Positions 30,072 to 52,273 of a DNA stretch of 64,000 nucleotides are shown one piece after another. Location: the IMG/VR virus record IMGVR_UViG_3300027608_000010; one strand, 5' to 3'. Made by a program: the position numbers and the translations under genes. This DNA comes from a virus. Taxonomy: Duplodnaviria > Caudoviricetes. Under the pieces are notes generated by a model, which searched no databases, was not told where the DNA came from, and was given only the letters and a program-made list of their open reading frames with translations. How positions within the stretch are numbered: the first letter of the stretch is position 1; the number at the start of each line of letters is the position of its first letter.

Positions 30072-30127
30072 AGATAATACTTATCTTTCCTAGGATATCC
30101 TCACAAATTTTAAACTTATGGATTTGT

Positions 30128-30135
30128 GATAAATA
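30128..30135 (+). promoter_or_regulatory. Late promoter-like GATAAATA
   Basis: Upstream of ATG 30156. Confidence 0.6.
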
Positions 30136-30155
30136 TAAGATATACGGAATTTACT

Positions 30156-33100
30156 ATGAAAATAAGTCATTTACAAGAAAATCTTACACCTTCTTCTGCA
30201 CCAAGCGCATCAGTTCCTGGACCTAAGTTTGGCCGCAGTGATGAAATGTTAGAGTCTGACACAGGATCTAGCGCAAGCACAACTGCAGGTACTATAGCTA
30301 CGAGAACGGGCGAACAGCGTAAAGGTAAAAAGAGTATATTTCAAGGTATCAAAAATGCAGGTGGATTTGCTAATAGCAGAAAAGCAGGTATTGTTGGTGA
30401 GGGTGCTATCAATGAAGATGACTTAAGCGAAGAACAACTACAAGCAAAGAAAAAACGAGAAGATTTATTCAACAGAGCAAAAGACCGCGATATAGGTAAT
30501 AAACCAAAGTCACGTGAAATCATGGCAAGAGAATCTGACACTGATGATAATCCTAAACCAGGTAGCTGGCAAGAAATAGCAAAATTAAATAACATTACTG
30601 ATCCTAGAAAATTACAAGCTGACAAGTCAATTACTTTACCTAACGGTGACAGTTATTATGTGAATAAAGGTGATACACTTAGTGGTATTGCACAAAGATT
30701 AAGAACAACAGTGTATCCACAATACGGAGAACCTGGATCATCTACTGAGAAAACATCTACTGGAGATTCATCTAGTTTAACTAAACCAGCAATGTATGTA
30801 GGTGGTGTTAATAAACGAATGGCCACGCCTGTTGTACAACCAGACCCAAGAGATTTAGAAAAAGGAAATAGTAGAGGCACACGACCAGATGTTGCGCTTC
30901 CACGATATCCTGATTCAGTATATGATTATAAACCAGAAGTATCAACATCTTCATCTAACACGATACATCCTCCGGGAACATCAATCACAGCTAAAATCAA
31001 AGATCCAAAAGCACCAAATTGGCCATTGGATGTGAATTTAACAAAAGGTGATGACGGTAAGTGGCGCAATGAAAAGGGGCAATTACATAACTTTAATAAA
31101 CCAGGCGATAAAGAACAATTAGAAAAGATGCCAGCACTCCCGCCAAATCAGTCTAGTGCTGAGACCAAGCGTCTTAATAGTATCCCAAAGAATAAAGAGC
31201 CTGATATTCATAGTCAAGCCGCACAAGATGCACAATGGGAAAAAGATAAAGAAAATATGGGCAATGCATGGGATGAGTTTAAAGGCTGGGTTAAGAAACC
31301 TAGGTCTTTTACTATAGTACCTGGAAAAGATAAACCTCCAGTTGATCCAGCACATGATATTGGTCAACGTGCAGGACTATCACCGGATGAAATAGTTAAA
31401 AGACTTAAGTCAGCACCTGGTGGTAAAGATGATACTCCACCAGCTAAACCTCAGAAATCAACGACAAGTAAAGCATCTTCTGCATCACCTAATCTTTCTC
31501 CTGACCACAAAGTTATTGCTGGAATAGAAAGCGGTAATAAAGATTATAAAGATGACGGCACTCCAGTTGTTTCTCCTAAAGGTGCACAGTTTGCAATGCA
31601 GGTTATGAAAGATACAAACAGAGATCCAGGATTTGGAGTAGTTCCAGCTAAAAATAATAGTCCTGAAGAATCAAACAGAGTTGGAAGAGATTATTTTGAT
31701 GCAATGATGAAAAAATATAATGGGGATAAGGAAAAGGCTTCAGCCGCATATAACGCCGGTCCTGGCAGAGTAGATAGTAAAATAGCAAAAGCTGAAAAAA
31801 CCGGTAAAGATTGGAAAGATTTGTTACCAAGAGAAACAAGAAATTACATAAAGAAATTCAATAAAGGAACTCAAGTGGCCTCAAGTAATGATGATACAAT
31901 GAATGAAGATATTAGTCAAAAATATGCAAGAGACTATGAATATATTCTTACTTACTTATTGTCTGAGGTAAAACAACTTCCGAGTAGACCATTTGATTTA
32001 CCACCATTAGAAGGTGGCAGTAAAATTACTGAATTATTAGAGTTTGATGTTAGCAGTGCTGCTAAACGAGCAGGTAAAAAACTTGTACCCGGATTTGGAT
32101 TCGTTGATGCTGGTATAAGAGCAAAAGACGGTGATTATACTGGTGCGGCGATCGGTACATTAGCAGGCATTGCTGGTTTAATACCGGGAGGTCAGGGAGT
32201 ATCATTGGGTGCAGATGCAGTAAATCAATTACGGGATTATGCTCAAGAAAAAGGTGGATGGGGTAACTTGGCCAAAGAAGTTGGACAATCAATGTCAGAT
32301 TATTATGGTCAGCAAGGTAACTTAATTCCCGAGGATCTAGAAATACTAGATGAGCAAGGATTTCTTAGATGGTTGGAAGAACAAGATTTACATAATTTAA
32401 GTGAAGCCGGGGGACTCCGAGGATTGGTCTGGGATGCTGTTAAAGCAGGAGCTGGGAAGTTAAAAAATTTAGTCAAACCTGCTGAAAGAGAAGTTGACAA
32501 TCTTAAAAGATTAGATCAAAGAGTAGAACCCGGATTTACACCTCCAGCTGTACAAGTTCCGCCTGCACCGACCGGAACAACAGCGGCAACTAAAGTGACA
32601 CCTCCAAAACCTGCTCCAGTTGATACCAGACAGTCACCGATACTTGGACCCGACGGAAAACCTCTTAACGTTCCTGTCAATCCCAAAATTACAAATACTA
32701 ATGTAGGTCCGGGAGGTAGCAGAGAAGCTCAAGCATATAGGGCACAACAATCAGCACCGGCAGCTCAAGCAGCACCAGTAGATAAACCACAACCAACAGC
32801 AGGCGTACTTAGCCCGGAAGACTCGGCTGCCATACAGGCCTTGAGAAGAAAAAATGCTCCTCAAGGCTGGGAACATGTAGTTGATTTCGGAAAAAACGCA
32901 ATTGGCACAGGGACCAAATTGGGCACAGGTGCCGGTCTCGGGGCATTAATATATAATTATGCACCGGAGATAAAAAAGAAATGGGACGATGGGGTGGATG
33001 CAGTGGGTTCTGCTTATAATGAATTTTTTCCAGCACCTCCAAACCAGGACGAGGTTCAACGACAGGTTGACGATTATACCAAGCCCAAGACACCACCAGT

Positions 33101-34259
33101 AGAAATAAAAAAGCCAGATAATGAAGTTACTAACGGAAAAGATACTGCACCACCAAAAATAGAAAAGTCAGATGATACTACTAACGGTAAAGATTCCGCA
33201 TCGCCAGACACTGACACGCCGGATGCTGACGAGGTTGCTAGACAGGTGAAAGCTATGACAGATAAAACAAACGAATCTACAGTATCACGTATGGTTGATG
33301 AGTATGAACAAATTCTTGAATCGTTAATGGGTAAGTTAAGTTTATCAGAAGAACGCACTGAAACTAAAAATGAAAAAGGTGAAGTTACGAGCTGGAGAGA
33401 TGAATCTGATTGGCGCAAGGTCAAAAAAGTTAAAGACGGCCGCGGTCGGGTAACAAATCTAAGCGATAAGGCACGTAGAGAAACCGAAACGCTAACACAG
33501 AAAAAAGATGTGACAGAAGAACAAGCTGTACCACTATCAGGAAAGATATCAGCAAGACCTAACCAGGATCCAAACTCATTTGAAGATTGGGATTATTACC
33601 ATCAAGGTAAACCAATACAACCAGGTACTGATATACACACAAAAGTAAAAGATTTACATATGCGTCAATCAGATCCAGCATATGATACAATGAGAAATGC
33701 ATTTGATAATCCTATACAACCAGGATCAACACTTCCCCAAGATCAATCAGGTGATACGATTATTCCATCACATCAGAAGCAGCCAAGAGGAGTAAAAGGA
33801 CCGAATGGTGAAAAATTTCAATTCGATACAGATGAAAAAGCAAAATATTTTTTAGACAACATGCAACGATTACATCAACAAGATCAAGAGAGAGAGAGTC
33901 CTGATGCGATCAGATCCGAATCAACAAGTGCTAAGAAGAAAGGCATGGGCGGACAAGTTGTATTCTCTGGTACAGGAGACAACGGTGGTAAGTATGAAAT
34001 CATCCAATCTGGAGATGATTTTATGATTCACGCCAATGGTAAACACATTGATTCTTATGGAAGTCTACAACGAGCAATGAGTGTTCTACAAAATGAAGTG
34101 CCAGGATTAACTAAAACTGTAGCAGAAGAAAAGCCAGGACTATGGGCTAATATAGCTGCCAAAAGAAAACGTATTGCTGCAGGTAGTGGTGAACACATGC
34201 GTAAGCCAGGCAGCAAGGGCGCACCAACAGCAGACGCATTAAGAAAGTCAGCAAAATGA
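30156..34259 (+). CDS. Large modular virion-internal (ejection-type) polyprotein with LysM and soluble lytic transglycosylase domains
   Basis: Leader MKISHLQE; LysM (YYVNKGDTLSGIAQ); SLT (IAGIESGN, SPKGAQFAMQVM, AAYNAGPGRV, ETRNYIKK); C-terminal basic peptide KPGLWANIAAKRKRI...; many xxE sites. Confidence 0.8.
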   Translation: MKISHLQENLTPSSAPSASVPGPKFGRSDEMLESDTGSSASTTAGTIATRTGEQRKGKKSIFQGIKNAGGFANSRKAGIVGEGAINEDDLSEEQLQAKKKREDLFNRAKDRDIGNKPKSREIMARESDTDDNPKPGSWQEIAKLNNITDPRKLQADKSITLPNGDSYYVNKGDTLSGIAQRLRTTVYPQYGEPGSSTEKTSTGDSSSLTKPAMYVGGVNKRMATPVVQPDPRDLEKGNSRGTRPDVALPRYPDSVYDYKPEVSTSSSNTIHPPGTSITAKIKDPKAPNWPLDVNLTKGDDGKWRNEKGQLHNFNKPGDKEQLEKMPALPPNQSSAETKRLNSIPKNKEPDIHSQAAQDAQWEKDKENMGNAWDEFKGWVKKPRSFTIVPGKDKPPVDPAHDIGQRAGLSPDEIVKRLKSAPGGKDDTPPAKPQKSTTSKASSASPNLSPDHKVIAGIESGNKDYKDDGTPVVSPKGAQFAMQVMKDTNRDPGFGVVPAKNNSPEESNRVGRDYFDAMMKKYNGDKEKASAAYNAGPGRVDSKIAKAEKTGKDWKDLLPRETRNYIKKFNKGTQVASSNDDTMNEDISQKYARDYEYILTYLLSEVKQLPSRPFDLPPLEGGSKITELLEFDVSSAAKRAGKKLVPGFGFVDAGIRAKDGDYTGAAIGTLAGIAGLIPGGQGVSLGADAVNQLRDYAQEKGGWGNLAKEVGQSMSDYYGQQGNLIPEDLEILDEQGFLRWLEEQDLHNLSEAGGLRGLVWDAVKAGAGKLKNLVKPAEREVDNLKRLDQRVEPGFTPPAVQVPPAPTGTTAATKVTPPKPAPVDTRQSPILGPDGKPLNVPVNPKITNTNVGPGGSREAQAYRAQQSAPAAQAAPVDKPQPTAGVLSPEDSAAIQALRRKNAPQGWEHVVDFGKNAIGTGTKLGTGAGLGALIYNYAPEIKKKWDDGVDAVGSAYNEFFPAPPNQDEVQRQVDDYTKPKTPPVEIKKPDNEVTNGKDTAPPKIEKSDDTTNGKDSASPDTDTPDADEVARQVKAMTDKTNESTVSRMVDEYEQILESLMGKLSLSEERTETKNEKGEVTSWRDESDWRKVKKVKDGRGRVTNLSDKARRETETLTQKKDVTEEQAVPLSGKISARPNQDPNSFEDWDYYHQGKPIQPGTDIHTKVKDLHMRQSDPAYDTMRNAFDNPIQPGSTLPQDQSGDTIIPSHQKQPRGVKGPNGEKFQFDTDEKAKYFLDNMQRLHQQDQERESPDAIRSESTSAKKKGMGGQVVFSGTGDNGGKYEIIQSGDDFMIHANGKHIDSYGSLQRAMSVLQNEVPGLTKTVAEEKPGLWANIAAKRKRIAAGSGEHMRKPGSKGAPTADALRKSAK
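33516..33770 (+). repeat. 255-bp dispersed repeat, copy 2 (copy 1 at 17942..18196)
   Basis: Begins right after aaagatgtgaca (KDVT|EE), a degenerate form of the GGTGTGGCGGA junction. Confidence 0.92.
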
Positions 34260-35791
34260 AAATTAAAGATATTCTATTAGAAAGCGCACAAGGCAAAATG
34301 GTGCGCGGCATGCTAGTACAAACACTAGACCAATTTGTAAAAACTAGTAAAGTAGAAACTGTTGAAGAGGAATTAGATACTGCACCATCTGAAGAACCTA
34401 AACAACAACCGGTAAGATTTAGTCCTTCAATCAAAGCAAATTATTCTGATCAACCAAAACAACAACCTACACAATTAGACCCATCAAGAAGTGGCTATAG
34501 TAAAATACTTAATCCAGATGATGTTGCTAAAATGGTTCATCACAAAAATAGTTTTGTTATCTATTATGAATATAAGGCTCCTGATGATCCAGGTAGAACA
34601 TTAGAAAAACGTGTAACAACTGAACCTATCTATATTCCTCAAGAAAGAATTGGTGAATTAACTGCACAAGCTAATGCATTTATTGAAGAAAAATTTCCAA
34701 CAGCTACTGATAAGGCAAAGAAAACTAAAGCATATTCAATATTAGGTCGCTTAATGGAAAAGTTAGCCGTTGATGAGGCTATTAAGAATAGTGCAGAAGT
34801 ACAATACGCACTTGAGAAGGGCGTATTACCACAAAAGTTAAAAGCAAAAGCATTTACCACTACTGGCGCAAAAGCATCAAATCCATCAGTGCATAAAGGT
34901 TCAGTTCCTATTCTTAATGAAGAAGGTGAAATCATTTATGATTTAGATGGATTGGCAGCAAGTATCACACGCCGACCAGATAGACTTTTAAAAGTAAATG
35001 CTAAAATGGTAAAGAGTTCCGGTGACTCAGTGCAAATGGCAAACATTGGTATTCCTGCTATTGCTGGATTGGTAGTGGATGAAAAGACAAAAACATTTAT
35101 TCGTATCAATACATGTCCGGGCGCAGGTAAATGTAAAGATTATTGTTATGCGACACGCGGTGGATATGTACAGTATGCCGCAAGTTCAGAAAGTCAAGCA
35201 AGAGTATTAAATTATTGGTATAATGATCCTGAAGGATTCAAACAACAAGTAATTGCTGAATTCAAAAAATTAGTCAAGCCGGGTGTTAAGGCATATTTAC
35301 GTTGGCACGATTCGGGTGACTTCTTTGTTGATGCATACTTACACTTGGCATTTGAAGTTGCACATGCTGTTCCTGATGCAACTATCTATGCTTATACAAA
35401 AATTGCTAAGGTTGCACAAGACCCAATGATGCCACCAAACTTCTTAATTAACTTTAGTGACGGTGCTAAACCAGATGAAACTAAACAAATTGATTATAAG
35501 AAAGTTAAACATAGTATCGTTGTTCCTGGCGAATTATTCAAAGATGAAAAATCAACTGGGATTGGTTTAGAAAAACTACAAAATCAAGATCCAACTGCAC
35601 AGCAAAAAATGAAAGAAGTGATTGGTAAACAATATGATGTTGATCCTAAATCAGTATTAACATATGATGAAATGATGGATATGCCTGAGGGCAGTAAACT
35701 AAAATACAATGTAATTGTTGTTCCGGGACTAGACGGCGACTTAGGCGCCGCACGTAGAGATATTTTAGGTAGCTACTTACTATATCATTAA
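34256..35791 (+). CDS. GP88-like protein with a Cys3 cluster motif and an MKIKDILLE| leader
   Basis: NTCPGAGKCKDYCYA, LRWHDSGDFF and YAYTK resemble the phage 'gene product 88' family. Confidence 0.65.
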   Translation: MKIKDILLESAQGKMVRGMLVQTLDQFVKTSKVETVEEELDTAPSEEPKQQPVRFSPSIKANYSDQPKQQPTQLDPSRSGYSKILNPDDVAKMVHHKNSFVIYYEYKAPDDPGRTLEKRVTTEPIYIPQERIGELTAQANAFIEEKFPTATDKAKKTKAYSILGRLMEKLAVDEAIKNSAEVQYALEKGVLPQKLKAKAFTTTGAKASNPSVHKGSVPILNEEGEIIYDLDGLAASITRRPDRLLKVNAKMVKSSGDSVQMANIGIPAIAGLVVDEKTKTFIRINTCPGAGKCKDYCYATRGGYVQYAASSESQARVLNYWYNDPEGFKQQVIAEFKKLVKPGVKAYLRWHDSGDFFVDAYLHLAFEVAHAVPDATIYAYTKIAKVAQDPMMPPNFLINFSDGAKPDETKQIDYKKVKHSIVVPGELFKDEKSTGIGLEKLQNQDPTAQQKMKEVIGKQYDVDPKSVLTYDEMMDMPEGSKLKYNVIVVPGLDGDLGAARRDILGSYLLYH

Positions 35792-35853
35792 ATATATGGA
35801 CAAAGTTTTTGAATTCTATTGGAAAAATAAAGGAAACCCACCTGGGAAATAAA

Positions 35854-36294
35854 ATGTTATCAGACGATTTAAAAATATTATTAGCTTCAACAGAAGCATT
35901 CTCATTGAAGTCACGAAACTTCCATTGGAATATTGAGGGAAGTGATTTCCCACAATATCACGCATTCTATGAGTCATTGTATACTGAATCATACGAGACA
36001 GTAGATAAGATTGCAGAATACATCAGGGTATTGGGTAGCTATGCACCAGCAAGTTTAACTCGCTATGCCGAACTATCAATCATAGAAGATCAAACATTGA
36101 TACCACGTGCTGAGTTAATGTTTACTGAAACTTATGTTGATATACAAAAAATGATTGAACTTGTTGTTGCAATGTTTGACATTGCTACAGAAGAACGTCA
36201 ACAAGGTATTGCTAATTTTATGGCCGAACTACAAGACTTCTATGGTAAGAAAGCCTGGATGGTTCGCAGTATTCTTAAAAAAGAACGTGAATAA
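35854..36294 (+). CDS. dps: Dps-family ferritin-like DNA-protection protein
   Basis: NFHWNIEG.DF.QYH..YE..Y......D.IAE.IR.LG; likely start ATG 35854. Confidence 0.88.
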   Translation: MLSDDLKILLASTEAFSLKSRNFHWNIEGSDFPQYHAFYESLYTESYETVDKIAEYIRVLGSYAPASLTRYAELSIIEDQTLIPRAELMFTETYVDIQKMIELVVAMFDIATEERQQGIANFMAELQDFYGKKAWMVRSILKKERE

Positions 36295-36299
36295 ATTAC

Positions 36300-37322
36300 A
36301 TGCACCTCAATGAAGTCACATCACCTCTAAAAAAGTTTAAAGTAACCGTAAAAGTTAACGGTTCTTCAATAAAAACGATAATTCATGCTGAGTCACAAAG
36401 TCAAGCAAGACAATTGTTGGTCAAGTTATACGGCAAAGACAATGTACAGTCAATCTCTGAATCAATTCATCATATTACAACAGATGAAATGGCTCTTAAG
36501 CAGTTTACACCAATGGGTGACTTTGAGAAACCTGGACCATTTAGAGGTGTTGATAAAAGATTAATACCTCATCCAACTAATCAATTAAAGACACAACGAT
36601 TTTTAGAAAAAACTCCCTATGATTTTAGATTATTTTTTAGTAACATTCCTGGCACAGGTCGTTATAGTGAATACGGCCCAATGGATTCAGAAAATGTAAA
36701 AATTATATTCGGAGATGCAGGCGAACAGATTATTGCTGGACATCAAGATGCAATCACTATTGTATTTGTTGGTAATAAAGGTGATAGTAAAGTAATGATG
36801 ACCCCATGGATTATGGCACATAGATTTGGTCATGCTATTCAAGCAGGTCATCGTAATAGTGGAAGTAGCAAATCAGGTGCATGGCCAGAAGCAGAACAAT
36901 ATTTCTTTAATACAGTTAATCAAGTGTTAGAACGTTGCTATGGTAAGATAGCAAAAGACCAATATGGTCGTCCTGCACGAAGCGGTATGTCATTTAATTT
37001 AACACCAGAATATAATGCATTATTCAATGCTATTGGCACACAACGTAGCAGTCGCAGTAATGAAATTAAAAGACCATATGAATTCTTGTACGAATTGTTT
37101 GCACAGTATCTAGGTACAGGAACAATCACATTAAACCCATTACCGACTAACTTAGGTTACGGTCGGCAAGCATGGGGAAATCCAAGTAAATACCTTAATC
37201 TAAAATCAGAATTTCGTGATGAAGAAACAAGACAATATGAATCTCAAGGTATGGGTGATGATTTAACCGAATACTTTGCTGAAGTTTTAAGAAGTTGTGT
37301 AGGCAATATTTATGTTATGTAA
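36300..37322 (+). CDS. Hypothetical protein with an MHLNE| leader and a zincin-like HRxGH motif
   Basis: WIMAHRFGHAIQ ... YEFLYELFAQYL. Confidence 0.5.
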   Translation: MHLNEVTSPLKKFKVTVKVNGSSIKTIIHAESQSQARQLLVKLYGKDNVQSISESIHHITTDEMALKQFTPMGDFEKPGPFRGVDKRLIPHPTNQLKTQRFLEKTPYDFRLFFSNIPGTGRYSEYGPMDSENVKIIFGDAGEQIIAGHQDAITIVFVGNKGDSKVMMTPWIMAHRFGHAIQAGHRNSGSSKSGAWPEAEQYFFNTVNQVLERCYGKIAKDQYGRPARSGMSFNLTPEYNALFNAIGTQRSSRSNEIKRPYEFLYELFAQYLGTGTITLNPLPTNLGYGRQAWGNPSKYLNLKSEFRDEETRQYESQGMGDDLTEYFAEVLRSCVGNIYVM

Positions 37323-37325
37323 TTT

Positions 37326-38033
37326 ATGATTCTATATACTCTAATAGTAACCCACATCACAATCATTTGTGTCACACTTTTCTTACACAGAGGTCAAGCA
37401 CACAAAGGATTAATATTTCATCCTGTACTAAGTCACTTTATGAGATTCTGGTTGTGGCTGACAACCGGTATGGTTACTAAACAATGGGTTGCTATACATC
37501 GCAAACACCATAGACATAGTGACGTAGAGGGTGATCCACATAGCCCTCATGTATATGGGATTATGAGAGTATTTTTTAAAGGAGCGATACTATACCATGA
37601 CGCAAGTAAAGATAAAGATATGGTTGATTCATATGGTGTTGGTACTCCTTCTGATTGGATTGAGCACAACTTATACAGTGCTCACTCCAGACTTGGCATT
37701 GGCATTCTCTTTTTGTTCAACACGCTAGTATTTGGATATTGGGGTATACTAATATGGTTAATTCAGATGATATGGATACCATTCTGGGCTGCCGGAGTAA
37801 TCAACGGCATCGGACATTGGTGGGGGTATCGTAATGGTGAAACTAAAGATAAAAGTAAAAACATTAGTCCTTGGGGCATTATTATTGGCGGTGAATGTCT
37901 GCACAATAATCATCATTTGGAACCCGCGAATCCTCGTCTTAGTCGCCGATGGTTTGAATTTGATATAGGATGGATGTACATTAATATATTCAGTAGTTTA
38001 CGACTATTGAAAGTCAGAAACACACTACCTTAG
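37326..38033 (+). CDS. Acyl-lipid/acyl-CoA delta-9-type fatty acid desaturase
   Basis: His boxes LHRGQAH, HRKHH..SD..GDPHSP and LHNNHH, plus transmembrane segments. Confidence 0.92.
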   Translation: MILYTLIVTHITIICVTLFLHRGQAHKGLIFHPVLSHFMRFWLWLTTGMVTKQWVAIHRKHHRHSDVEGDPHSPHVYGIMRVFFKGAILYHDASKDKDMVDSYGVGTPSDWIEHNLYSAHSRLGIGILFLFNTLVFGYWGILIWLIQMIWIPFWAAGVINGIGHWWGYRNGETKDKSKNISPWGIIIGGECLHNNHHLEPANPRLSRRWFEFDIGWMYINIFSSLRLLKVRNTLP

Positions 38034-38110
38034 GACCTTTGCGTTATAAAGTGTGGCCCGGCTGCTGGGCTGAGAAAGCGATTCGCTACCGTGGACTCAA
38101 AAGTGAGCAA
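38031..38110 (+). other. GC-rich intergenic element with several short hairpins (candidate structured RNA)
   Basis: gcccgg-ctg-ctgggc, agcg-att-cgct and ctca-aaag-tgag in an otherwise AT-rich genome. Confidence 0.35.
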
Positions 38111-38122
38111 TATCCTTTCTGA

Positions 38123-38130
38123 GATAAATA
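38123..38130 (+). promoter_or_regulatory. Late promoter-like GATAAATA
   Basis: Upstream of ATG 38154, preceded by AGGA. Confidence 0.6.
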
Positions 38131-38153
38131 CACTATTACTCAGGATTTTTAAT

Positions 38154-38915
38154 ATGATTTTATTAGAAGGTGGAAACATTTGGCCAGACGTTGAGACTAA
38201 CTTTGACCCGTCTGTTGTCGGAAAACCACTAAGCGACACTACACAAAAATACCTAGAACCTTTGGGAGTCAAACTAGAGGTTATTGGTTCATGCTGGAAG
38301 CCTCGTTATGATGCGAACGGTAATGTTGTACCATCAAATGATTTAGATGCAATGGTGGAATTATCTACATTAATGCAACAGTTCCAAACAGAAGATTCAT
38401 CAACTACTCGCAAAACACTGGCAGCTTACTTTGAAAAGCAAGGAATTTCAACTAGGTTAGCAGGTGTAACTGTGCATGTTAGAATGCCAATGGGAAATAA
38501 GTTCTATCAAGCTGATATCAAAGTTGTAAAGAATGCTCATAAAGTAGCACAGTTTCACAGACACGATATTCCAAAAGGTAGTCCATATAAAGGTGTAAAC
38601 AAACAACTAGTTATGAATGCACTTGCTAGCACACAAGGTATGTTATGGAGTCCTGATGAAGCATTATACAAACGTGATGCGGCAGGGAAAAAAGCTGACA
38701 TGTTAAGTGATGATTGGGATATGATTGCTCAATACTTATTAGGTAGAGGTGCAAAAGGTTCTGACTTGGGTAGTGTAGAATCTATCATGGCAAAGATACC
38801 TGACAAAAGACGCAAAGAAGAAATTATGAACATGGCACGTGCTGGCCATAGTTGGCAACAAGCCACACCTAATGTAACCGAATGGTTTCGTAGAACAATG
38901 GAGATGTTAAAATGA
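38154..38915 (+). CDS. Pol-beta-like nucleotidyltransferase with an MILLE|G leader
   Basis: EVIGS......SNDLDAMV (GS..DxD) with a third Asp in YQADIKV; likely start ATG 38154. Confidence 0.6.
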   Translation: MILLEGGNIWPDVETNFDPSVVGKPLSDTTQKYLEPLGVKLEVIGSCWKPRYDANGNVVPSNDLDAMVELSTLMQQFQTEDSSTTRKTLAAYFEKQGISTRLAGVTVHVRMPMGNKFYQADIKVVKNAHKVAQFHRHDIPKGSPYKGVNKQLVMNALASTQGMLWSPDEALYKRDAAGKKADMLSDDWDMIAQYLLGRGAKGSDLGSVESIMAKIPDKRRKEEIMNMARAGHSWQQATPNVTEWFRRTMEMLK

Positions 38916-40225
38916 GAATAACTGAGATTATAGCTGAAGCAGCCAATCGTAAGAAACAGGCTGCGATTGCTATTGCTAAGAAAAAGAAGAAAGGTGTGGC
39001 GGAAGGCCTAAACGAACAAACATTTACAGGTGAGTATGATTCAGAGGACATGCAGGATGCACGTGACCAGGCAGAATTTCAAGCAAAGCATTTACTAGGT
39101 CAATCAATTCACGGTGCTAACTGGGATGGTAACGTCTTCTCCCTGCCCTTAGATGATTACGATGGCCAGCATGAGCGCACCACTTCTGACGGTAAAGGTA
39201 AATTTATTGCAAAGTATACATATACAAAAAAAGTTCTACCAAAAGTTCAAGAACAGGGTGTGGCGGAAGGCTCATTAAATGAATTTGCGATACCCGGTGG
39301 TGGAGATGGTGACTCAGGACGTTGGTATAACGATGACGAGCTTGCTGATATCATTGGTGATGATTGGTTTGAGGACTTTGATGTCAGCAACGATGGGTTT
39401 AATATTGATGCCTACGGCGAAAAAGCCAAGAAGAATTTAGTGGGCTATGCAAATACATGGTTTGATGATAAAGGTTATAATGTTAACGTAATGGGTGTAG
39501 AACACAATGATGTTGATCATGATTTACAATGGTACATTGTTGGTAGTTTCCATAATCCTCGCTTTGCCAACGAAGGTGTGGCGGAGGCTGGCTTTCCAGG
39601 TGCTCCAGACGTTGAAATGCCGCCAATGAAGCCAAGTGGTGATCCACAAAGAGACAAACTTAAACAAGAGTACGTGGACTTGCATCGTGAAATTAAAAGT
39701 TTGGTTGATTTACAGTATAATAGCAAATCAACAGAAGAAAAAATGCAGGCTAAAGCACGAATTAAACAACTCAATGACAGAGCAGACCAAATAAGGGCAA
39801 TTCTAGAACCTAGACAGCCACCCAACGAATGGCAGAAAAAAACATATGGGTTTGATGACAACTGGAACAAAGTGAATCAAGGTGTGGCGGAAGACTGGAA
39901 TAAAGTCAACAAGAAAGACAAGACTTCTGGAATGAGTCAAAAGGCGGTGAATGCTTATCGTAGAGAAAATCCAGGTAGTAAGTTAAAAACTGCTGTAACA
40001 ACTAAGCCAAGTAAATTAAAGAAAGGCAGCAAAGCTGCCAACCGTCGTAAAAGTTTCTGTGCTAGAATGGGCGGTAACAAAGGTCCCATGAAAAAACCTA
40101 ATGGTAAACCTACTCCCAAAGCATTGGCACTACGTAGATGGAATTGCGAGAGTATAGAAGAATTACAAGAATTAGTAATGCTTGCTGAACAATTTGTAAA
40201 CAAGAAAAAAAATGAGAGTATCTGA
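38912..40225 (+). CDS. Cassette-like polyprotein: five modules joined by GVAE junctions, ending in a basic DUF6321-like module
   Basis: Leader MRITEIIAE; four GVAE sites; last module AYRRENPGSKLK...RRKSFCARM...ALRRWNC. Confidence 0.7.
   Translation: MRITEIIAEAANRKKQAAIAIAKKKKKGVAEGLNEQTFTGEYDSEDMQDARDQAEFQAKHLLGQSIHGANWDGNVFSLPLDDYDGQHERTTSDGKGKFIAKYTYTKKVLPKVQEQGVAEGSLNEFAIPGGGDGDSGRWYNDDELADIIGDDWFEDFDVSNDGFNIDAYGEKAKKNLVGYANTWFDDKGYNVNVMGVEHNDVDHDLQWYIVGSFHNPRFANEGVAEAGFPGAPDVEMPPMKPSGDPQRDKLKQEYVDLHREIKSLVDLQYNSKSTEEKMQAKARIKQLNDRADQIRAILEPRQPPNEWQKKTYGFDDNWNKVNQGVAEDWNKVNKKDKTSGMSQKAVNAYRRENPGSKLKTAVTTKPSKLKKGSKAANRRKSFCARMGGNKGPMKKPNGKPTPKALALRRWNCESIEELQELVMLAEQFVNKKKNESI
38993..39893 (+). 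repeat. Four copies of GGTGTGGCGGA at 38993, 39257, 39575 and 39881
   Basis: Identical 11-mer (GGTGTGGCGGAAG in three copies); spacings of 264, 318 and 306 bp, all multiples of 3. Confidence 0.95.
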
Positions 40226-41387
40226 TTTATTACTTGAAGCCGCAGGTCCTGCTGTTGGTCGTAAGTACCAACATATTGAAGACCTTGTAGTCACTAACGG
40301 AAGTGGTGGTGGACTACATGCGGCTGAACGTATGAAGCATATGGTTGATAACTATGATTCTATTGAATTGAAATGGGACGGCATGCCAGTTGTATACTGG
40401 GGTCGTGATGAAAAAGGTATCTTTAGAATGATACCAAAGAATGCATGGGCGTATTTAAAATCTGGCAAGACACAAACAAGTAGCGGTGCACCGACGGTGA
40501 TGAATAGCTATAAAGATGTTTATGCTTTTGTAATGGGTACAGGTAATGCTGATCCTAATGACGAGAAACGAGTTCAGTTTGCAACACAATTTGCAAAGAT
40601 GTGGCCTTATTTTGAAAAGATTAGTCCACAAAAAGGATTTTTAGAAGGCGGGTTATTATTCTATCCAGGCACTAAACCTGATGGACAAAGTGCAATGCCA
40701 GTGTTTAATAAGAAAACACAAACATTTGATTTTCAGCCAAACATAACTAAATTTCACATTCCAATAAGTAGTGAATTAGGTAAAAGAATAGGTAGACCAG
40801 AACAATTAAATGCAAAGTTAATGGTAGCAGCCACTGGATGGTACGCTACATTAGGTAGCAGTGATGAACAACGTTATCCAAACGCAGAAAGTTTATCTAC
40901 AAAAGATGTTATTGTACAAGGCACTACATACGTAGAAGAAATGCCAGGGGTTGATACAAGTTATATTGATAAGATGATTCAGTTCATTAGTGGTAACGCA
41001 CAGATTATTGATACGTATCTATCACCTAAGAAAGGTCTATCTAGACCAAGCGGCATACTTTATACATATCTTAACAATCATCTAAGAGGTGATGGATTAG
41101 TAAGAGACTTCCCACAATGGACACAAGCTAATCTAAGTGAAGGTCAAGCACAAGGCATGTTAGCAGACAAAAAAGGTTATCAGACTGTACTTGGTGCAGT
41201 TGAAGGACTAAGTAGAGCTAAGATGCAATTAATTAAGTCATTGAGTTTAGGATTACACGGTGGTATAATGCAAACTAATCCAGAAGGATATGTGCAAGCA
41301 CATCCTGAAGTTAATTTTGATAATCCATTACCCGGCCAGTTCTTAAAGTTAATTGACCAACAAAACTGGGCACCAAAGAAGATATGA
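40212..41387 (+). CDS. ATP-dependent ligase-fold (covalent nucleotidyltransferase) protein with an MRVSDLLLE| leader
   Basis: Motif I ELKWDG, motif III-like LEGGLLF, motif IV PEGYV, motif V FLKLID; N-terminal HIEDL. Confidence 0.65.
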   Translation: MRVSDLLLEAAGPAVGRKYQHIEDLVVTNGSGGGLHAAERMKHMVDNYDSIELKWDGMPVVYWGRDEKGIFRMIPKNAWAYLKSGKTQTSSGAPTVMNSYKDVYAFVMGTGNADPNDEKRVQFATQFAKMWPYFEKISPQKGFLEGGLLFYPGTKPDGQSAMPVFNKKTQTFDFQPNITKFHIPISSELGKRIGRPEQLNAKLMVAATGWYATLGSSDEQRYPNAESLSTKDVIVQGTTYVEEMPGVDTSYIDKMIQFISGNAQIIDTYLSPKKGLSRPSGILYTYLNNHLRGDGLVRDFPQWTQANLSEGQAQGMLADKKGYQTVLGAVEGLSRAKMQLIKSLSLGLHGGIMQTNPEGYVQAHPEVNFDNPLPGQFLKLIDQQNWAPKKI

Positions 41388-42604
41388 GATACATAGAATT
41401 TTACGAATCAACACAAAACACAGCCGTAGTCGGTTGGGGTCGTGGTATGGGTCACAAAGGGCATATGTTGTTGGCAAGAGCAGTTATCATGCAAGCAGAA
41501 CAAATGAATGCAACACCATTCTTTTTTGTCTCAGCGACAATGGGCAAAGAAGATCCATTAACACCAGAAGAAAAATTATCAATATACAAAAAAGTATTTC
41601 CTAAACAAGCAGGTATATTTAATTTTGGACAAACACTTGGGCAAGTATTGAGTGATGTAGGTAAACAATATAAAAACGTTGTTTTAGTTTTAGGTGAGAC
41701 CGAAGTACCCTCATTTCAATGGTTATTGAATCCAGATAAGTCAGGTGTGTCCCCTTATAAAAATTATGGATTGAACAGTTTAAAAATCATAGCAAGACAA
41801 CAAGTTAACGATCCAGCACAAAAGATTGAAGGACCAAGAGCAACACCGATGCGTGAGATTCTATTGAATCCTCAAGCAAGTGAAGAACAAAAATTTGCAA
41901 TATGGCGTAGAGATATGCCTGATGCATTAAGTGATGAAGAAGTATTGTCATTGATGAATACTGCACAACAACGATTGAATGTAGCACATGCACCTAAAGT
42001 ACGTAAGTCACCAGTAAAAGCATTGAAGAAGAAAACAATGGCTGAATCAGCAGTAAGTGATTTGGCTGATAAATTACCTTCATTAAAGAAATATGATTAC
42101 AGCACTATTGATAATCTAATGAAACGTATCAGTGTTCGTTATAAAATTAGTGGTGATAAATTACATGACATGTTTGTTAGTAAGTATGGTCATACACCTG
42201 ATACTTGGATAAAGAAAATTAAGAATAGATTAAGTGAAGGTATTGAATCAAATGAAGATATGCAACAGGTTAATAATTTTGTTGAATGGTGTATTAAAAC
42301 CCTACATATTAAAAAACCATACCCAGTAATCACTTACAGTAAGAATTCAGAAGAAGCACAAGAAGGTCATCATACCGGTCGTCATACCAGTGATGGTAAG
42401 ATTTGGGTATATGTTGAGAATCGTAATATGGTAGATATCTTTAGAACAATCTTCCATGAATTAGTACATCACAGACAGGATCAATTGAATATGATTGGAC
42501 CCGACGATAGCTATCCAGGTAGCCCTGTTGAAGCAATGGCTGATATGCTTGCGGGTAAATACATTAAGATTTACGGCAAAGATCACCCAGAAATCTTTCA
42601 ATAA
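41384..42604 (+). CDS. HxGH cytidylyltransferase/NMNAT-like domain fused to a C-terminal HExxH metallopeptidase-like domain, with an MRYIEFYE| leader
   Basis: VVGWGRGMGHKGH, DPLTPEEK and RATPMRE; C-terminal RTIFHELVHHRQ...EAMAD. Confidence 0.65.
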   Translation: MRYIEFYESTQNTAVVGWGRGMGHKGHMLLARAVIMQAEQMNATPFFFVSATMGKEDPLTPEEKLSIYKKVFPKQAGIFNFGQTLGQVLSDVGKQYKNVVLVLGETEVPSFQWLLNPDKSGVSPYKNYGLNSLKIIARQQVNDPAQKIEGPRATPMREILLNPQASEEQKFAIWRRDMPDALSDEEVLSLMNTAQQRLNVAHAPKVRKSPVKALKKKTMAESAVSDLADKLPSLKKYDYSTIDNLMKRISVRYKISGDKLHDMFVSKYGHTPDTWIKKIKNRLSEGIESNEDMQQVNNFVEWCIKTLHIKKPYPVITYSKNSEEAQEGHHTGRHTSDGKIWVYVENRNMVDIFRTIFHELVHHRQDQLNMIGPDDSYPGSPVEAMADMLAGKYIKIYGKDHPEIFQ

Positions 42605-42628
42605 GGTTACCGCAATTACGTAAACTGT

Positions 42629-42656
42629 TTGACTTCTTAGCGAATTAGTGTATAAT
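42629..42656 (+). promoter_or_regulatory. Sigma70-like promoter for the DNA polymerase operon
   Basis: TTGACT-16 nt-TATAAT. Confidence 0.7.
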
Positions 42657-42679
42657 AACTACTTCACTAAGGAGTAAAC

Positions 42680-42943
42680 ATGAACGATGTTAAAACATTC
42701 AACGGCGATCAAAAAATCAAACTAACACAACTCATTAATGAGGGTATGCTAGTTATGAATGAAATTGATACATTAAACGGTGGACTCACCGATACAGTAA
42801 AAGCAATAGCAGAAGAACTAGAAGTTAAACCTAGTGTACTTAAAAAGGCAATACGAATTGCCCATAAAGCAAGTTTAACACAATCAAATCAAGAACACGA
42901 ACAACTCAACACTATTTTGGAAACTGTGGGCAAAACACTTTGA
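42680..42943 (+). CDS. T4 DsbA-like dsDNA-binding protein
   Basis: 87-aa helical protein, KAIAEELEVKPSVLKKAIRIAHK, similar to the C-terminus of T4 DsbA. Confidence 0.5.
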   Translation: MNDVKTFNGDQKIKLTQLINEGMLVMNEIDTLNGGLTDTVKAIAEELEVKPSVLKKAIRIAHKASLTQSNQEHEQLNTILETVGKTL

Positions 42944-45657
42944 GTTATGTAGATGCCATCCATTCACGGGATGAAGATAGAATTTATGTAGTAGAACGAG
43001 GTACTGACGGTAAGCGTCATTACAAAGAGTTCCCTGCCAATTATGTTTTCTACTATCCAGATAACAAGGGTAAGCATCGTAGCATTTATGGCAAACCAGT
43101 AAGTAGATTCAGTACTCGCAAGCGTACAGAGTTTGAGAAGGAACGCAGGATACACGGTGGTAAGGAACTCTTTGAGAGTGACATTAACGTAGTGTTTCGT
43201 TGTCTAAGTGAAAACTATTTGGGTATAGATCCTCCCAAACTACACACTTGTTTCTTTGACATTGAAGTAGACTTTGATCCAGAAAAAGGTTTCAGTCCTA
43301 CTACTGACCCATTCAATCCCGTAACAGCTATTTCATTGTATTTGGATTGGCAAGACACATTGATAACATTGTGTATTGCACCAAAGCACATGAGTAATGA
43401 AACAGCATGGGAAATTACACGTAAGTTTGAGAATACATTGCTTTTCAAAAATGAAACGGAAATGTTTGAGACATTCTTTCAATTGATTGAAGATGCAGAT
43501 GTGTTGACTGGCTGGAACTCAGAAGGATACGACATACCATATATGGTTAATCGTGTCACACGTGTAATGAGTAAAGACGATACACGTAAATTCTGTTTAA
43601 TGGGTCAACTACCCAAGCCAAGAGAGTATGAACGATTTGGTAAGTCAGAACAGACTTATGATTTAATCGGTCGTATTCACATGGACTATTTGCAACTCTA
43701 CAAGAAATACAACTACGAAAGTCGCCATAGCTATAAACTAGATGCTATTGGTGAAATGGAAGTTGGTGAAAACAAAACACAATACGAAGGTACTCTTGAC
43801 CAATTGTATAACAAGGACTGGCAAAAGTTCTTAGAGTATAACAGACAAGATACTATGTTGTTGGTTAAGATTCACAACAAACTTAAATTCTTAGATTTGG
43901 CTAATGCATTGGCACATGAAAACACAGTACTGTTACCAACAGTTATGGGTTCAGTGGCAATGATTGAAATGGCTATCTATAATGAGGCGCATGAGCGTGG
44001 ATTAGTTGTACCAGATAAAAAACGGAGAAATATAAATGCAGATGAAACACAGCAAGCCGCAGGTGCCTTTGTTGCTACGCCGAAAAGAGGTATGCACGAA
44101 TACGTCGGGGCAGTCGATATTAACTCACTCTATCCTTCGGTCATCCGAGCAGTTAACATGGCGGGCGAGACTATTGTTGCCCAAGTCAGACAAACTTTAA
44201 CCGATCAGTACATGAAAGACAAGGGTCTTAGATTAGCACAAGAAAAGAAACGTTATAAAGAAGGTGACGATGATGTGGGTGGTGCTATTCTATGGGAAGG
44301 TTTGTTTGGTGCGTTAGAGTATACTGCTATTATGAACCAAGAGCGTGGCACTATGCTTACTGTTGACTATGAAGATGGTCGCTGTGAAGAAATGTCTGCG
44401 GCAGAGATATGGAAGATGGTCTTTGACAGTCACAAGCCTTGGATGCTTAGTGCAAATGGTACAATCTTTACATACGAGAAAGAGGGCGTAGTTCCAGGAC
44501 TATTGTCTCGCTGGTACTCGGATCGTAAAGCAATGCAGAAGAAACTAAAAGAATCAACTACTGATGAAGACCGTGATTATTGGGACAAGCGTCAGTTAGT
44601 ACGTAAGATTTTATTGAACTCTGCATATGGCGCATTGTTGAATGAGCATTGTCGTTTCTATGATAAACGCATTGGGCAAAGTGTTACATTGTGTGGTCGT
44701 CAGATTGTTAAACACATGATGAGTACTATCAATGAAACAATCGCAGGTGAATATGCACACGACGGTGAAGCTATCGTATATGGTGATACTGACTCATGTT
44801 ATTTTACTGCATATCCTATTCTCAATTCGCAAATAGCAAATGGTGAACTAGTTTGGAATAAGGAAACTTGTATTGGATTGTATGATAGTATTGCTGACCA
44901 AGCAAACGAATCATTCCCTGCATTTATGGAGAAAGCATTTCACTCACCACGCAAGAATGGGGAAATCATTAAAGCAGGTCGTGAATTGATTGGTGATCGT
45001 GCTATCTTTATTACAAAGAAACGCTATGCTATCAATATCTTTGATAAAGAGGGCAAGCGTAAAGATAAAGATGGTAAACTAGGTGATATCAAAGCTATGG
45101 GTCTTGACTTGAAACGTGCTGATACTCCTAAATACGTACAAGAATTCTTAATGAGTGTTCTCAGTATGGTCATTCAACAAGGTAAAGGTCGTGATGAAGT
45201 CATTGAAACTATCAAAGACTTCAAGCGAACATTATCCGAGCAAGATAGTTGGACAAAAGGTTCACCTAAATCAGTGAACAAGTTAACAATGTATGGTGAG
45301 AAAGAAGCAAACAGTAGTAAAGGTCGTGAGAACATGCCCGGTCATGTACGTGCGGCATTGAATTACAACTATCTACGTAGAGTCAATGGTGACCAATACA
45401 GTCAAAAAATTGTTGATGGTATGAAGGTAGTAGTTTGCAAAATGAAATCTAATCCATTGAACTTTACAAGCATTGCTTACCCAACAGACGAACTGCGACT
45501 ACCTAAATGGTTTACAGAATTGCCATTTGATGATAAGGCAATGGAACAAACACTTGTTGATGAAAAGATTGACAACTTACTCGGAGTATTAAGTTGGGAT
45601 ATCAAAACCAACATTGATACTGATTCAACATTTAGTGATTTATTTACTTTCGGTTAA
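42940..45657 (+). CDS. Family B DNA polymerase with a 3'-5' exonuclease domain (T4 gp43-like)
   Basis: ExoI FFDIEVD, ExoII GWNSEGYD, ExoIII YNRQD; DINSLYPS, KILLNSAYG, YGDTDS, KKRY. Confidence 0.97.
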   Translation: MSYVDAIHSRDEDRIYVVERGTDGKRHYKEFPANYVFYYPDNKGKHRSIYGKPVSRFSTRKRTEFEKERRIHGGKELFESDINVVFRCLSENYLGIDPPKLHTCFFDIEVDFDPEKGFSPTTDPFNPVTAISLYLDWQDTLITLCIAPKHMSNETAWEITRKFENTLLFKNETEMFETFFQLIEDADVLTGWNSEGYDIPYMVNRVTRVMSKDDTRKFCLMGQLPKPREYERFGKSEQTYDLIGRIHMDYLQLYKKYNYESRHSYKLDAIGEMEVGENKTQYEGTLDQLYNKDWQKFLEYNRQDTMLLVKIHNKLKFLDLANALAHENTVLLPTVMGSVAMIEMAIYNEAHERGLVVPDKKRRNINADETQQAAGAFVATPKRGMHEYVGAVDINSLYPSVIRAVNMAGETIVAQVRQTLTDQYMKDKGLRLAQEKKRYKEGDDDVGGAILWEGLFGALEYTAIMNQERGTMLTVDYEDGRCEEMSAAEIWKMVFDSHKPWMLSANGTIFTYEKEGVVPGLLSRWYSDRKAMQKKLKESTTDEDRDYWDKRQLVRKILLNSAYGALLNEHCRFYDKRIGQSVTLCGRQIVKHMMSTINETIAGEYAHDGEAIVYGDTDSCYFTAYPILNSQIANGELVWNKETCIGLYDSIADQANESFPAFMEKAFHSPRKNGEIIKAGRELIGDRAIFITKKRYAINIFDKEGKRKDKDGKLGDIKAMGLDLKRADTPKYVQEFLMSVLSMVIQQGKGRDEVIETIKDFKRTLSEQDSWTKGSPKSVNKLTMYGEKEANSSKGRENMPGHVRAALNYNYLRRVNGDQYSQKIVDGMKVVVCKMKSNPLNFTSIAYPTDELRLPKWFTELPFDDKAMEQTLVDEKIDNLLGVLSWDIKTNIDTDSTFSDLFTFG

Positions 45658-51595: not shown

Positions 51596-52273
51596 ATGAG
51601 TTATAATAAGACAAAAACTGATCCTGAATTAGGATTACAAGTACACGAACATCTAGTTAAAATGGGTGTTGAAACGCCAACCACTTATACAGGTCATATG
51701 TCCCGTGTAGGCAAGATTGAATTGATTGAAAGTCATTTCAAAGGTATCATGGAAACATTAGGTTTAGACCTAAGTGATGATAGCTTAATGGACACACCCA
51801 AGCGTGTTGCCAAGATGTATGTCAATGAAATCTTTTGGGGACTTGATTATGAAGCATTCCCTAAATGTACTACTGTTGACAATAAAATGAAATACAATGA
51901 AATGGTATGTGAACGTAACGTTAACGTGCAAAGCAATTGTGAACATCACTTTGTTGTTATTGATGGGCTTGCTACTGTTGCATATGTTCCCAAAGACAGA
52001 GTACTTGGCTTAAGTAAAATCAATCGTATTGTAGAATATTTTTCTAAGCGACCACAAATACAAGAACGATTAACTGAACAAATCTTTCACACACTACAAT
52101 ACATTTTGAACACAGAAGATGTTGCAGTTATGATTGACGCAAAACACTATTGTGTTGCGGCCAGGGGAGTTGAGGATACTGGTAGTAGTACAGTAACCAC
52201 ACGCTTAGGTGGTGGGTTTAAATCTGACCCGGCGGCACGTGCAGAGTTCTATCAAATTGCGAGACAGAAATGA
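51596..52273 (+). CDS. folE: GTP cyclohydrolase I
   Basis: DTPKRVAKMY, SNCEHHF, GLSKINRIV, RPQIQERLT, HYCVAARG. Confidence 0.96.
   Translation: MSYNKTKTDPELGLQVHEHLVKMGVETPTTYTGHMSRVGKIELIESHFKGIMETLGLDLSDDSLMDTPKRVAKMYVNEIFWGLDYEAFPKCTTVDNKMKYNEMVCERNVNVQSNCEHHFVVIDGLATVAYVPKDRVLGLSKINRIVEYFSKRPQIQERLTEQIFHTLQYILNTEDVAVMIDAKHYCVAARGVEDTGSSTVTTRLGGGFKSDPAARAEFYQIARQK

Follow-up and report, generated by a model that had tools for sequence, protein, structure and literature searches.

The locus described here raises the question of why one phage gene should contain the same short DNA word four times, each time at the edge of a protein module that resembles none of the others. The gene is an open reading frame (ORF) of 437 residues on the plus strand, positions 38912-40225, of a 64,000-nt stretch of viral DNA (Duplodnaviria; Caudoviricetes; IMG/VR record IMGVR_UViG_3300027608_000010); the whole stretch is called the window below. 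The word is the 11-mer GGTGTGGCGGA, which in this ORF encodes a Gly-Val-Ala-Glu (GVAE) linker. Comparison with relatives shows that modules are exchanged at this DNA-conserved linker. To account for this we propose a two-layer model, which we consider probable, in which the linker acts jointly as a recombination patch at the level of the DNA and as a prohead protease site at the level of the peptide.

Four In-Frame Copies of One Word in a Single Gene

A preliminary description of this DNA had reported four in-frame copies of GGTGTGGCGGA in one ORF, containing rare Val and Ala codons and separating unrelated modules at spacings of 88, 106 and 102 residues, and our counts agree with it on each point. 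GGTGTGGCGGA occurs four times in the window (38993, 39257, 39575 and 39881), always on the plus strand, where a shuffled sequence predicts 0.27 copies; tolerating one mismatch adds none. All four copies lie in frame 0 of the ORF as GGT GTG GCG GA(A/G), which places GVAE at residues 28, 116, 222 and 324, with 88, 106 and 102 codons between successive sites, and outside this ORF no G-[VM]-A-E was found in window ORFs of at least 90 residues. GGT is the commonest Gly codon of the window; in the 53 other window ORFs GTG accounts for 9.1% of the Val codons and GCG for 6.0% of the Ala codons. From window codon usage the probability that a G-V-A site is spelled GGT GTG GCG is 0.003, and none of the 84 other V-A dipeptides of the window is spelled GTGGCG.

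At its start the ORF shares an ATGA overlap with the stop of the gene before it, and at its other end it runs into the start of the gene after it. Its parts are as follows.

38912..40225, plus strand: cassette polyprotein ORF, 437 residues; the identical protein is found on 3 contigs from independent assemblies
38912..38938, plus strand: leader MRITEIIAE, similar to a capsid-targeting sequence (CTS), with hydrophobic-x-E at residues 7-9; resembles the T4 CTS
38939..38992, plus strand: basic spacer of 18 residues (10-27), pI 11.5, between the leader and junction 1
38993..39004, plus strand: junction 1, GGT GTG GCG GAA, residues 28-31; homology with a sister strain resumes at 38987
39005..39256, plus strand: module 1, residues 32-115, 9.5 kDa, pI 4.8, no known family
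39257..39268, plus strand: junction 2, GGT GTG GCG GAA, residues 116-119; sister-strain identity stops at 39272, and contig pieces end here
39269..39574, plus strand: module 2, residues 120-221, 11.5 kDa, pI 4.1, predicted alpha/beta domain, no known family
39575..39586, plus strand: junction 3, GGT GTG GCG GAG, residues 222-225; starts of BLASTP high-scoring segments cluster at 220-223, and contigs begin at 39573
39587..39880, plus strand: module 3, residues 226-323, 11.4 kDa, pI 8.2, predicted helical hairpin, no known family
39881..39892, plus strand: junction 4, GGT GTG GCG GAA, residues 324-327; sister-strain identity resumes at 39878
39893..40222, plus strand: module 4, residues 328-437, 12.4 kDa, pI 10.4, DUF6321 domain (PF19846) and C-terminal helix

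The four modules have no similarity to one another, and each recurs independently in other proteins. The match of residues 335-410 to DUF6321 scores 58.2 bits, against a curated cut-off of 28.5, and the DUF6321 module is the sole module common to this ORF and cultured cyanophages and pelagiphages. It is strongly basic and might bind DNA, although this is a guess from composition. The AlphaFold model (mean pLDDT 60) predicts an alpha/beta core in module 2 (residues 140-215, pLDDT about 74-85) and a helical hairpin in module 3 (residues 245-300, pLDDT 92-96). Segments with pLDDT below 50 cover residues 22-40, 104-134, 220-241 and 310-343, and all four junctions are inside them. Look-ups of modules 1 and 2 in the ESM Atlas gave no usable match; Foldseek found nothing in the PDB at E<=0.001 and, in BFVD, returned only sequence relatives, that is, DUF6321 proteins.

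The Linker Is Conserved as DNA in Viral Contigs

In six contigs found through module 3, all 13 GVAE sites are spelled GGT GTG GCG GAR, and the GMAE variants differ synonymously. We also scanned IMG/VR with the pattern GARCARGGNGTNGCNGARGG, which is blind to the synonymous positions, and obtained at least 120 loci; the counts in this paragraph are among the matches listed. The exact 11-mer was present in 99 of 135 pattern matches, where 64 synonymous spellings are possible. GVAE sites are spelled GGTGTGGCGGA in 228 of 312 cases (73%; 143 distinct ORFs), compared with an expected share of about 0.66% from the codon usage of the same ORFs, and V-A dipeptides outside GVAE in these ORFs are spelled GTGGCG in 6% of cases. 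All but one of 234 copies of GGTGTGGCGGA fall in frame 0 of a long ORF. Repeated counting of one sequence is not the cause, as 219 distinct 53-mers are found among the 231 junction contexts. The canonical spelling makes up 49% in ORFs with a single GVAE and about 80% in those with two or more.

The consensus extends over ~21 nt (GAR CAA GGT GTG GCG GAA GGC), information being at background beyond -6 and +14 and amounting to about 0.1 bit past +14. As a control we used a conserved dipeptide inside DUF6321, where Ala345 keeps GCG in 11% and Val346 keeps GTG in 24% of relatives, compared with about 73% at the junction. Most variant junctions differ from the canonical form by a single step (GTG to GTA, GCG to GCA, GTG to ATG, GCG to GAG, GGT to GAT). 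The codon-usage test, the IMG/VR scan and the V-A controls support this part of the earlier reading, namely conservation of the junction at the DNA level beyond the need of the peptide. A Chi-like site was considered and rejected, as the motif is confined to module junctions.

Synonymous conservation might instead serve the mRNA or its translation, through a pause at rare codons or at a Shine-Dalgarno (SD)-like sequence that gives a module time to fold or be cleaved ahead of the synthesis of the next one. Among Val and Ala codons GTG and GCG are the least used or nearly so, and the motif is G-rich and partly SD-like, which would suit such a role, but GGT is not rare, and selection for pausing seldom fixes one exact 11-mer. 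No start codon or structure is conserved after the motif, as the low information beyond +14 indicates, and a translational role does not predict that real exchange breakpoints coincide with the motif, as described in the next section. We consider this explanation very unlikely. An internal translation start was likewise rejected, there being no conserved start codon 3' of the motif.

A scan of 185,579 prokaryote genomes with the 21-nt consensus gave 4 hits. Three of them, each a single copy in a short open frame of a bacterial genome rich in GC (64-70%), most likely reflect chance. The fourth (CAILDT010000116.1) is an 8.9-kb lake contig with a GC content of 39% in a metagenome-assembled genome labelled 'Bacteroidetes', and its 510-residue ORF is a polyprotein with four canonical junctions. 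It is probably a phage contig mis-binned with a bacterial genome, and as a hint to the host it is weak at best.

Modules Are Gained, Lost and Replaced at the Linker

Database proteins matching the ORF number more than 7,400, and in nearly every case the match, with 70-100% identity, covers one module only (about 25-30% of the query). Their lengths are 250-760 residues, and in some of them further Pfam domains such as GP88, LysM, ParB-like or DUF285 are present. In 119 homologues the ends of the BLASTP segments cluster at residues 220-223, 225-227, 323 and 327, that is, on the junctions. At least 24 proteins of differing architecture or neighbours contain module 3 with 88-98% identity, and module 2 occurs ahead of and behind differing modules in many proteins. 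Among the IMG/VR matches listed, 489 linker-delimited segments form 363 clusters, with a median inner module of 74 residues, and recurrent modules nearly always have different neighbours.

Individual exchanges are seen in a sister strain represented in three JGI samples (loci L132-L134). Its locus is orthologous, with gene order conserved from the GP88 gene to the gene for the family-B DNA polymerase (PolB), and the flanks are 98.9% identical over 36000-38931 and 97.6% identical over 39878-43000. The sister strain keeps module 1 (94.3% nucleotide identity, 38987-39272) and the DUF6321 module. In place of modules 2 and 3 it has one 51-residue module between two canonical junctions, module 2 being missing from L132; identity stops at 39272 and resumes at 39878, so that the breakpoints are at most 5 nt from the motif. 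The stretch behind the leader is replaced by a set of Cys-rich modules, about 185 residues in all, with AVAE (GCA GTG GCG GAA), DVAE (GAT GTG GCG GAA) and ISE sites between them. Here the left breakpoint lies within the leader codons, and there is no GVAE site at that point.

Contigs of lake metagenomes contain further arrangements. In runs X8 and X15 module 3 alone (39573-39892) is found between unlike flanks, one X8 contig has modules 1 and 4 without 39273-39877, and many contig pieces begin or end at 38991, 39257, 39573-6 and 39892; only contigs aligned to the locus were used, and uncovered stretches carry no weight. In close and distant relatives alike, modules have been gained, lost and replaced exactly at the junction. 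The swapping of modules at the motif, as claimed in the preliminary description, is therefore confirmed by the sister strain, the lake contigs and the BLASTP segment ends. We also examined whether relatives have the same modules in the same order with synonymous drift, and found the opposite.

All of these data are metagenomic and the contigs often break at junctions, as would be expected if unrelated sequences had been joined in assembly at a shared short repeat. We find such an artefact hardly credible, because the shared identity of 11-21 nt is shorter than the assembler k-mers (k=141 in a contig name) and because each architecture is present in several independent samples: the exact 437-residue architecture is found on 3 contigs and an alternative one of 453 residues on 10 contigs from at least 3 samples. 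What is more, the runs of three studies hold 97-99% of the sampled words of 38700-40400, and reading frames are preserved throughout.

An array of interchangeable units with a recurring short site resembles integron cassettes and shufflons, and the locus had been read as such an array. Integrons and shufflons depend on a site-specific recombinase and on structured sites (attC, sfx), and what they do is move entire ORFs or flip segments. A dedicated system of this kind, whether integron- or shufflon-like or driven by a homing endonuclease, would include an enzyme that recognises GGTGTGGCGGA. It would fit the extreme uniformity of the core over hundreds of unrelated module contexts and the very large repertoire of modules, which implies efficient recruitment. 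However, a Pfam scan of 36 window ORFs found no site-specific recombinase (IntI-type tyrosine recombinase or Rci) and no integrase, invertase or endonuclease family. Nor is the motif a palindrome, and in the 219 junction contexts among the matches listed there is no inverted repeat, no attC- or sfx-like structure and no conserved flanking arm. One exchange boundary, moreover, lies in the leader codons and not at the motif; the lack of circular or back-joined forms among the contigs carries no weight, as contigs cannot reveal rare forms. The comparison with integrons and shufflons is not supported by these results, and we judge a dedicated site-specific system highly improbable.

A near-duplication around the last junction had also been noted. 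The repeat is real (DNWNKVNQ-GVAE-DWNKVNKK), but its interpretation as a footprint of local duplication does not hold, because DDNWNKVNQ is the end of module 3 ahead of many unrelated modules and (E)DWNKVNKKDK is the start of DUF6321 behind many unrelated modules. A target-site duplication or insertion scar at junction 4 was rejected on the same grounds, both halves of the repeat belonging to their own modules elsewhere.

Among the modules of the sister polyprotein (L132, 5491-6852), residues about 160-190 have a DnaJ-type zinc-finger pattern, with CxxCxGxG occurring twice. Other alternative modules of the sister strain are Cys-rich mini-domains, and many modules may therefore be small zinc-binding units.

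The Linker as a Candidate Protease Site

In the T4 CTS, MKTYQEFIAE, targeting is controlled by residues 4 and 7, and gp21 processing by residues 8 and 10 (PMC9026906). The leader MRITEIIAE resembles this CTS as a sequence pattern only. A strict version of the leader motif, M[KRIN]x1-3[DEQ][FILVM]x1-3E, is present in 98 of 120 homologues, compared with 5 of 54 window ORFs, and four of these five are adjacent genes at 34256-42604.

The residues just before DUF6321 are hydrophobic-x-E in every context seen, the variants being VAE, IAE, VEE, ISE, VTE, IDE, LSE, LLE, IWE and LAE, and in some proteins the leader itself is the site before DUF6321, as in MKIQELLE-DWNKVN. Since hydrophobic-x-E is kept there even without the DNA motif, the constraint on the peptide outlasts decay of the motif. 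The decayed junctions AVAE and DVAE also retain V-A-E. Peptidase_S77, the T4 gp21-type prohead protease, is encoded on 4 of 5 large linker-bearing contigs of the clade, and the same four also encode a Gp23-type capsid protein. The Gp23-type capsid proteins of the clade have L-x-E sites in an N-terminal propeptide, as in T4. With these sequence patterns, and the location of all four junctions in predicted disordered linkers, in mind, cleavage after V-A-E by a T4-type prohead protease, with packaging and injection of the pieces, is plausible. Cuts after each Glu would give pieces of 9.5, 11.5, 11.4 and 12.4 kDa with pI values of 4.8, 4.1, 8.2 and 10.4.

The chain might instead stay in one piece, as a multidomain virion or effector protein akin to a small 'polyvalent protein', with GVAE as a flexible linker whose DNA is conserved solely as a recombination patch. 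The location of the junctions in predicted disordered linkers is in keeping with this, and phage polyvalent proteins are known as long multidomain chains (PMC5512222). A neutral linker, however, would need no Glu at a fixed position, whereas hydrophobic-x-E persists at the boundary through many non-GVAE variants. CTS-like leaders in 82% of the homologues and the gp21-type protease encoded by the clade also argue for cleavage, and Pfam detected no polyvalent-protein hub domain (zincin-like MPTase, ArdC-N, methylases, etc.) at E<=0.01. We regard an uncleaved chain as unlikely, and the same applies to the corollary that the hydrophobic-x-E pattern is structural or incidental.

A Two-Layer Model of the Linker

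According to the two-layer model, the chain would consist of four small, independently folding modules of 9.5-12.4 kDa behind a T4-type leader, with the linker ...Q-G-V-A-E-G... between them. The comparisons with relatives show the DNA layer, in which the core GGTGTGGCGGA and its ~21-nt consensus provide a portable patch of identity with a constant reading frame. Crossover at the patch, between co-infecting phages or paralogous genes, would delete, insert or replace modules while leaving frame and linker intact. As such an exchange would cross inside the shared word, new junctions would be canonical; they would later drift by point mutation, with only hydrophobic-x-Glu kept. Birth in the canonical form followed by decay would explain why about 75% of the junctions are exact copies and why the variants are one step away.

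In the peptide layer, V-A-E (hydrophobic-x-Glu) would be the site for a gp21-type prohead protease. The leader would bring the chain into the prohead core, where the protease would then cut after each Glu. By analogy with T4 internal proteins, the freed modules (two acidic, one near-neutral and the strongly basic DUF6321) would stay with the DNA and enter the host at infection.

Because no recombinase was found in the 36 window ORFs scanned and no attC-like structure at the motif, and because one breakpoint lies in the leader codons, the exchange looks homology-driven, like that of the PeSL (early promoter and stem-loop) cassettes of T4-type phages, rather than integron-like. Alternatively, a dedicated mechanism, whether an enzyme or specialised phage recombination, could recognise the linker and capture coding segments in frame between protease sites. 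We hold this to be doubtful. If such a mechanism did exist, hundreds of small injected effectors would form a combinatorial library common to a whole clade of giant freshwater phages, and the 11-21-nt word would be recombination site, reading-frame keeper and processing signal at once, a 'standard-parts' grammar.

Several points weigh against the two-layer model. In alignments of homologous modules, synonymous conservation at the junction is 76% vs 55% at other four-fold codons, which is only moderately higher; MAFFT alignments A1-A3 of full-length homologues misplaced module fragments, and the usable ones were A5 (modules 2 and 4) and A4 (module 3). An identity of 11-21 nt is short for canonical homologous recombination. 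On the protease side, no gp21-type protease gene was found in the 64-kb window. To our knowledge, Val at P3 is undocumented for T4 gp21, whose known sites mostly have Leu or Ile, so that the likeness is one of analogy only. DUF6321 is also present in podoviral pelagiphages, for which we know of no use of a gp21-type protease; the module is therefore independent of gp21-type processing.

Comparison with Known Systems

A literature search on the motif, on the peptide in a phage context and on DUF6321 found no relevant paper. By analogy, the system appears to work like the T4 internal proteins in function and like the shuffling of PeSL cassettes and gp38 adhesins in evolution. With IPI, IPII, IPIII and Alt of T4 (PMC9026906) it has in common a leader of ~9-10 residues ending in hydrophobic-x-Glu and, in the clade, a gp21-type protease. 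The cargo is likewise small, often basic or acidic, and drawn from a hypervariable gene set, a role in injection being presumed. The T4 internal proteins, however, are single proteins with one leader each, whereas here several unrelated modules follow one leader and are separated by a standard internal site. We found no homology to IPI, IPII, IPIII or Alt, Pfam and PHROGs returning DUF6321-type families only; the system thus works like the internal protein families but is not a member of them.

In PeSL cassettes, recombination at short conserved intergenic motifs swaps ORFs and yields mini-circles without a dedicated recombinase (PMC2839356). The linker resembles them (PMC2839356, PMC4122927) in that a short conserved DNA motif stands at both ends of the unit, breakpoints fall there and general recombination machinery apparently suffices. 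The PeSL motif is an intergenic early promoter and stem-loop terminator flanking whole ORFs, whereas the present motif of ~11-21 nt is coding, in frame and inside one ORF. The gp38 adhesins of T-even phages (PMC3157838) are also comparable, as conserved coding motifs between their variable segments have a role in the protein as well as in recombination, exchanges occurring in or near them. In gp38, however, the glycine-rich motifs build the structural core of a single domain whose variable parts are loops, while here the motif links autonomous, unrelated domains and its proposed role in the protein is that of a protease site.

Chains of unrelated domains in one phage polypeptide are also found in the polyvalent proteins (Iyer et al. 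2017, PMC5512222), whose effector-type domains are believed to travel with the DNA and perhaps to be cleaved apart. These proteins are large and have embedded peptidase domains (zincin-like MPTase), and no standard linker has been described in them (PMC5512222). In phiKZ, 201phi2-1 and SPN3US, ejection and inner-body proteins are processed at (S/A/G)-x-E (PMC5694885); as proposed here, many head-internal proteins of such giant phages are cut C-terminal to Glu in a three-residue motif, often at several redundant sites. The P3 residue is small in these phages and aliphatic here, processing there removes propeptides rather than freeing a string of modules, and no conservation of the cleavage sites at the DNA level has been described.

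If the two-layer model is correct, giant T4-related phages would vary their injected cargo by domain-sized shuffling at an in-frame linker, and not by swapping whole genes, and each recombinant would remain translatable and processable. As a simple sequence rule, cutting at G-V-A-E delimits candidate effector or anti-defence domains in hundreds of phage polyproteins not yet characterised, and the idea that recombination drives synonymous-site conservation can be tested on the linker. T4-based capsid delivery vectors already use the CTS, and for them the linker also suggests a natural way of packaging several cargoes.

The Carrier Phage and Its Genes

The carrier is an uncultured freshwater giant phage of a T4-related jumbo clade. 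At least half of the sampled words of 38700-40400 are present in 16 sequencing runs, all from freshwater or lake-water metagenomes; the runs belong to different studies, though some may share one campaign. The largest contig with the protein is ~297 kb long. The PolB of the window is 42-48% identical to that of Rak2-, Atu_ph07- and Phosso-type jumbo phages and 58-71% identical to that of large uncultured lake contigs in IMG/VR that also encode GVAE proteins. An exact 54-mer from the locus had no match in the IMG/VR search. RNA-library contigs cover the modules, which is not a demonstration of transcription. In contig G001 of the clade the identities (74% for DUF6321, 64% for PolB) differ too little to support a recent horizontal transfer of DUF6321.

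Around the polyprotein gene lie the following features.

38123..38130, plus strand: GATAAATA, identical to the T4 late-promoter box TATAAATA at 7 of 8 positions; it lies 24 nt before the start at 38154
38154..38915, plus strand: translationally coupled upstream gene, 253 residues (as called in public assemblies), protein starting MILLE-G; outside the array
40212..42604, plus strand: two downstream leader-bearing genes (MRVSDLLLE, MRYIEFYE) with the same leader type

The octamer GATAAATA at 38123 is a putative late promoter of the operon. It is also found at 30128-30135, ahead of an ATG at 30156, and both genes that follow it are leader-bearing. The box TATAAATA itself is depleted in the window, with 3 copies found vs about 9 expected (6610, 19708 and 27571), all on the plus strand and just upstream of ORF starts at 6637, 19739 and 27598. 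As a late promoter driving the polyprotein ORF it was rejected, since none lies directly ahead and the nearest candidate is the 7/8 match at 38123.

Leader-bearing genes form a run from 34256 to 42604. One of them, the 406-residue ORF 41384-42604 with the leader MRYIEFYE, resembles a cytidyltransferase in its N-terminal half (phrog_3041) and has, towards the C-terminus, a zincin-like HELVHH motif that no Pfam family matches. Its residues 221-281 match phrog_10346, a family with a DUF6321 C-terminus, and neighbouring cargo genes therefore have pieces in common. A 40-nt stretch at 34587-34626, 75% identical to 39969-40008, encodes the core motif of DUF6321 (NPGSKLKTAVTTKP-like) near the N-terminus of the GP88-domain protein 34256-35791. 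A 294-nt stretch is present with 84% identity (17942-18235 vs 33516-33809) in a 311-residue ORF (17699-18634) and a 1377-residue SLT/LysM ORF (30126-34259), both leader-bearing but otherwise unrelated, which is a case of module copying within one genome without a GVAE linker. The run of cargo genes also includes a ferritin/Dps-like gene (35809-36294) and a fatty-acid desaturase gene (37326-38033).

Elsewhere in the window, the phage encodes DnaJ (13340-14152) followed directly by a ClpB/Hsp104-type double-AAA chaperone (14177-16459), and a tail-fibre-like ORF of the Mtd_N type (27598-28959) contains about 14 tandem Cys-rich repeats of 48 nt (16 residues) at 27779-28787. In a related giant phage, the PolB homologue on an IMG/VR contig (G004, locus L033, 65120-69503) is in three open pieces matching query residues 1-114, 116-617 and 610-904, which suggests inserted elements or a split gene. 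The window also contains genes for GTP cyclohydrolase I (51596-52273), a cytidylyltransferase-like protein (53232-53696), a 6-pyruvoyl-tetrahydropterin synthase/QueD-like protein (53772-54311) and a radical-SAM/QueE-like protein (54676-55518). Together they look like a 7-deazaguanine (preQ0-type) pathway, possibly used in DNA modification.

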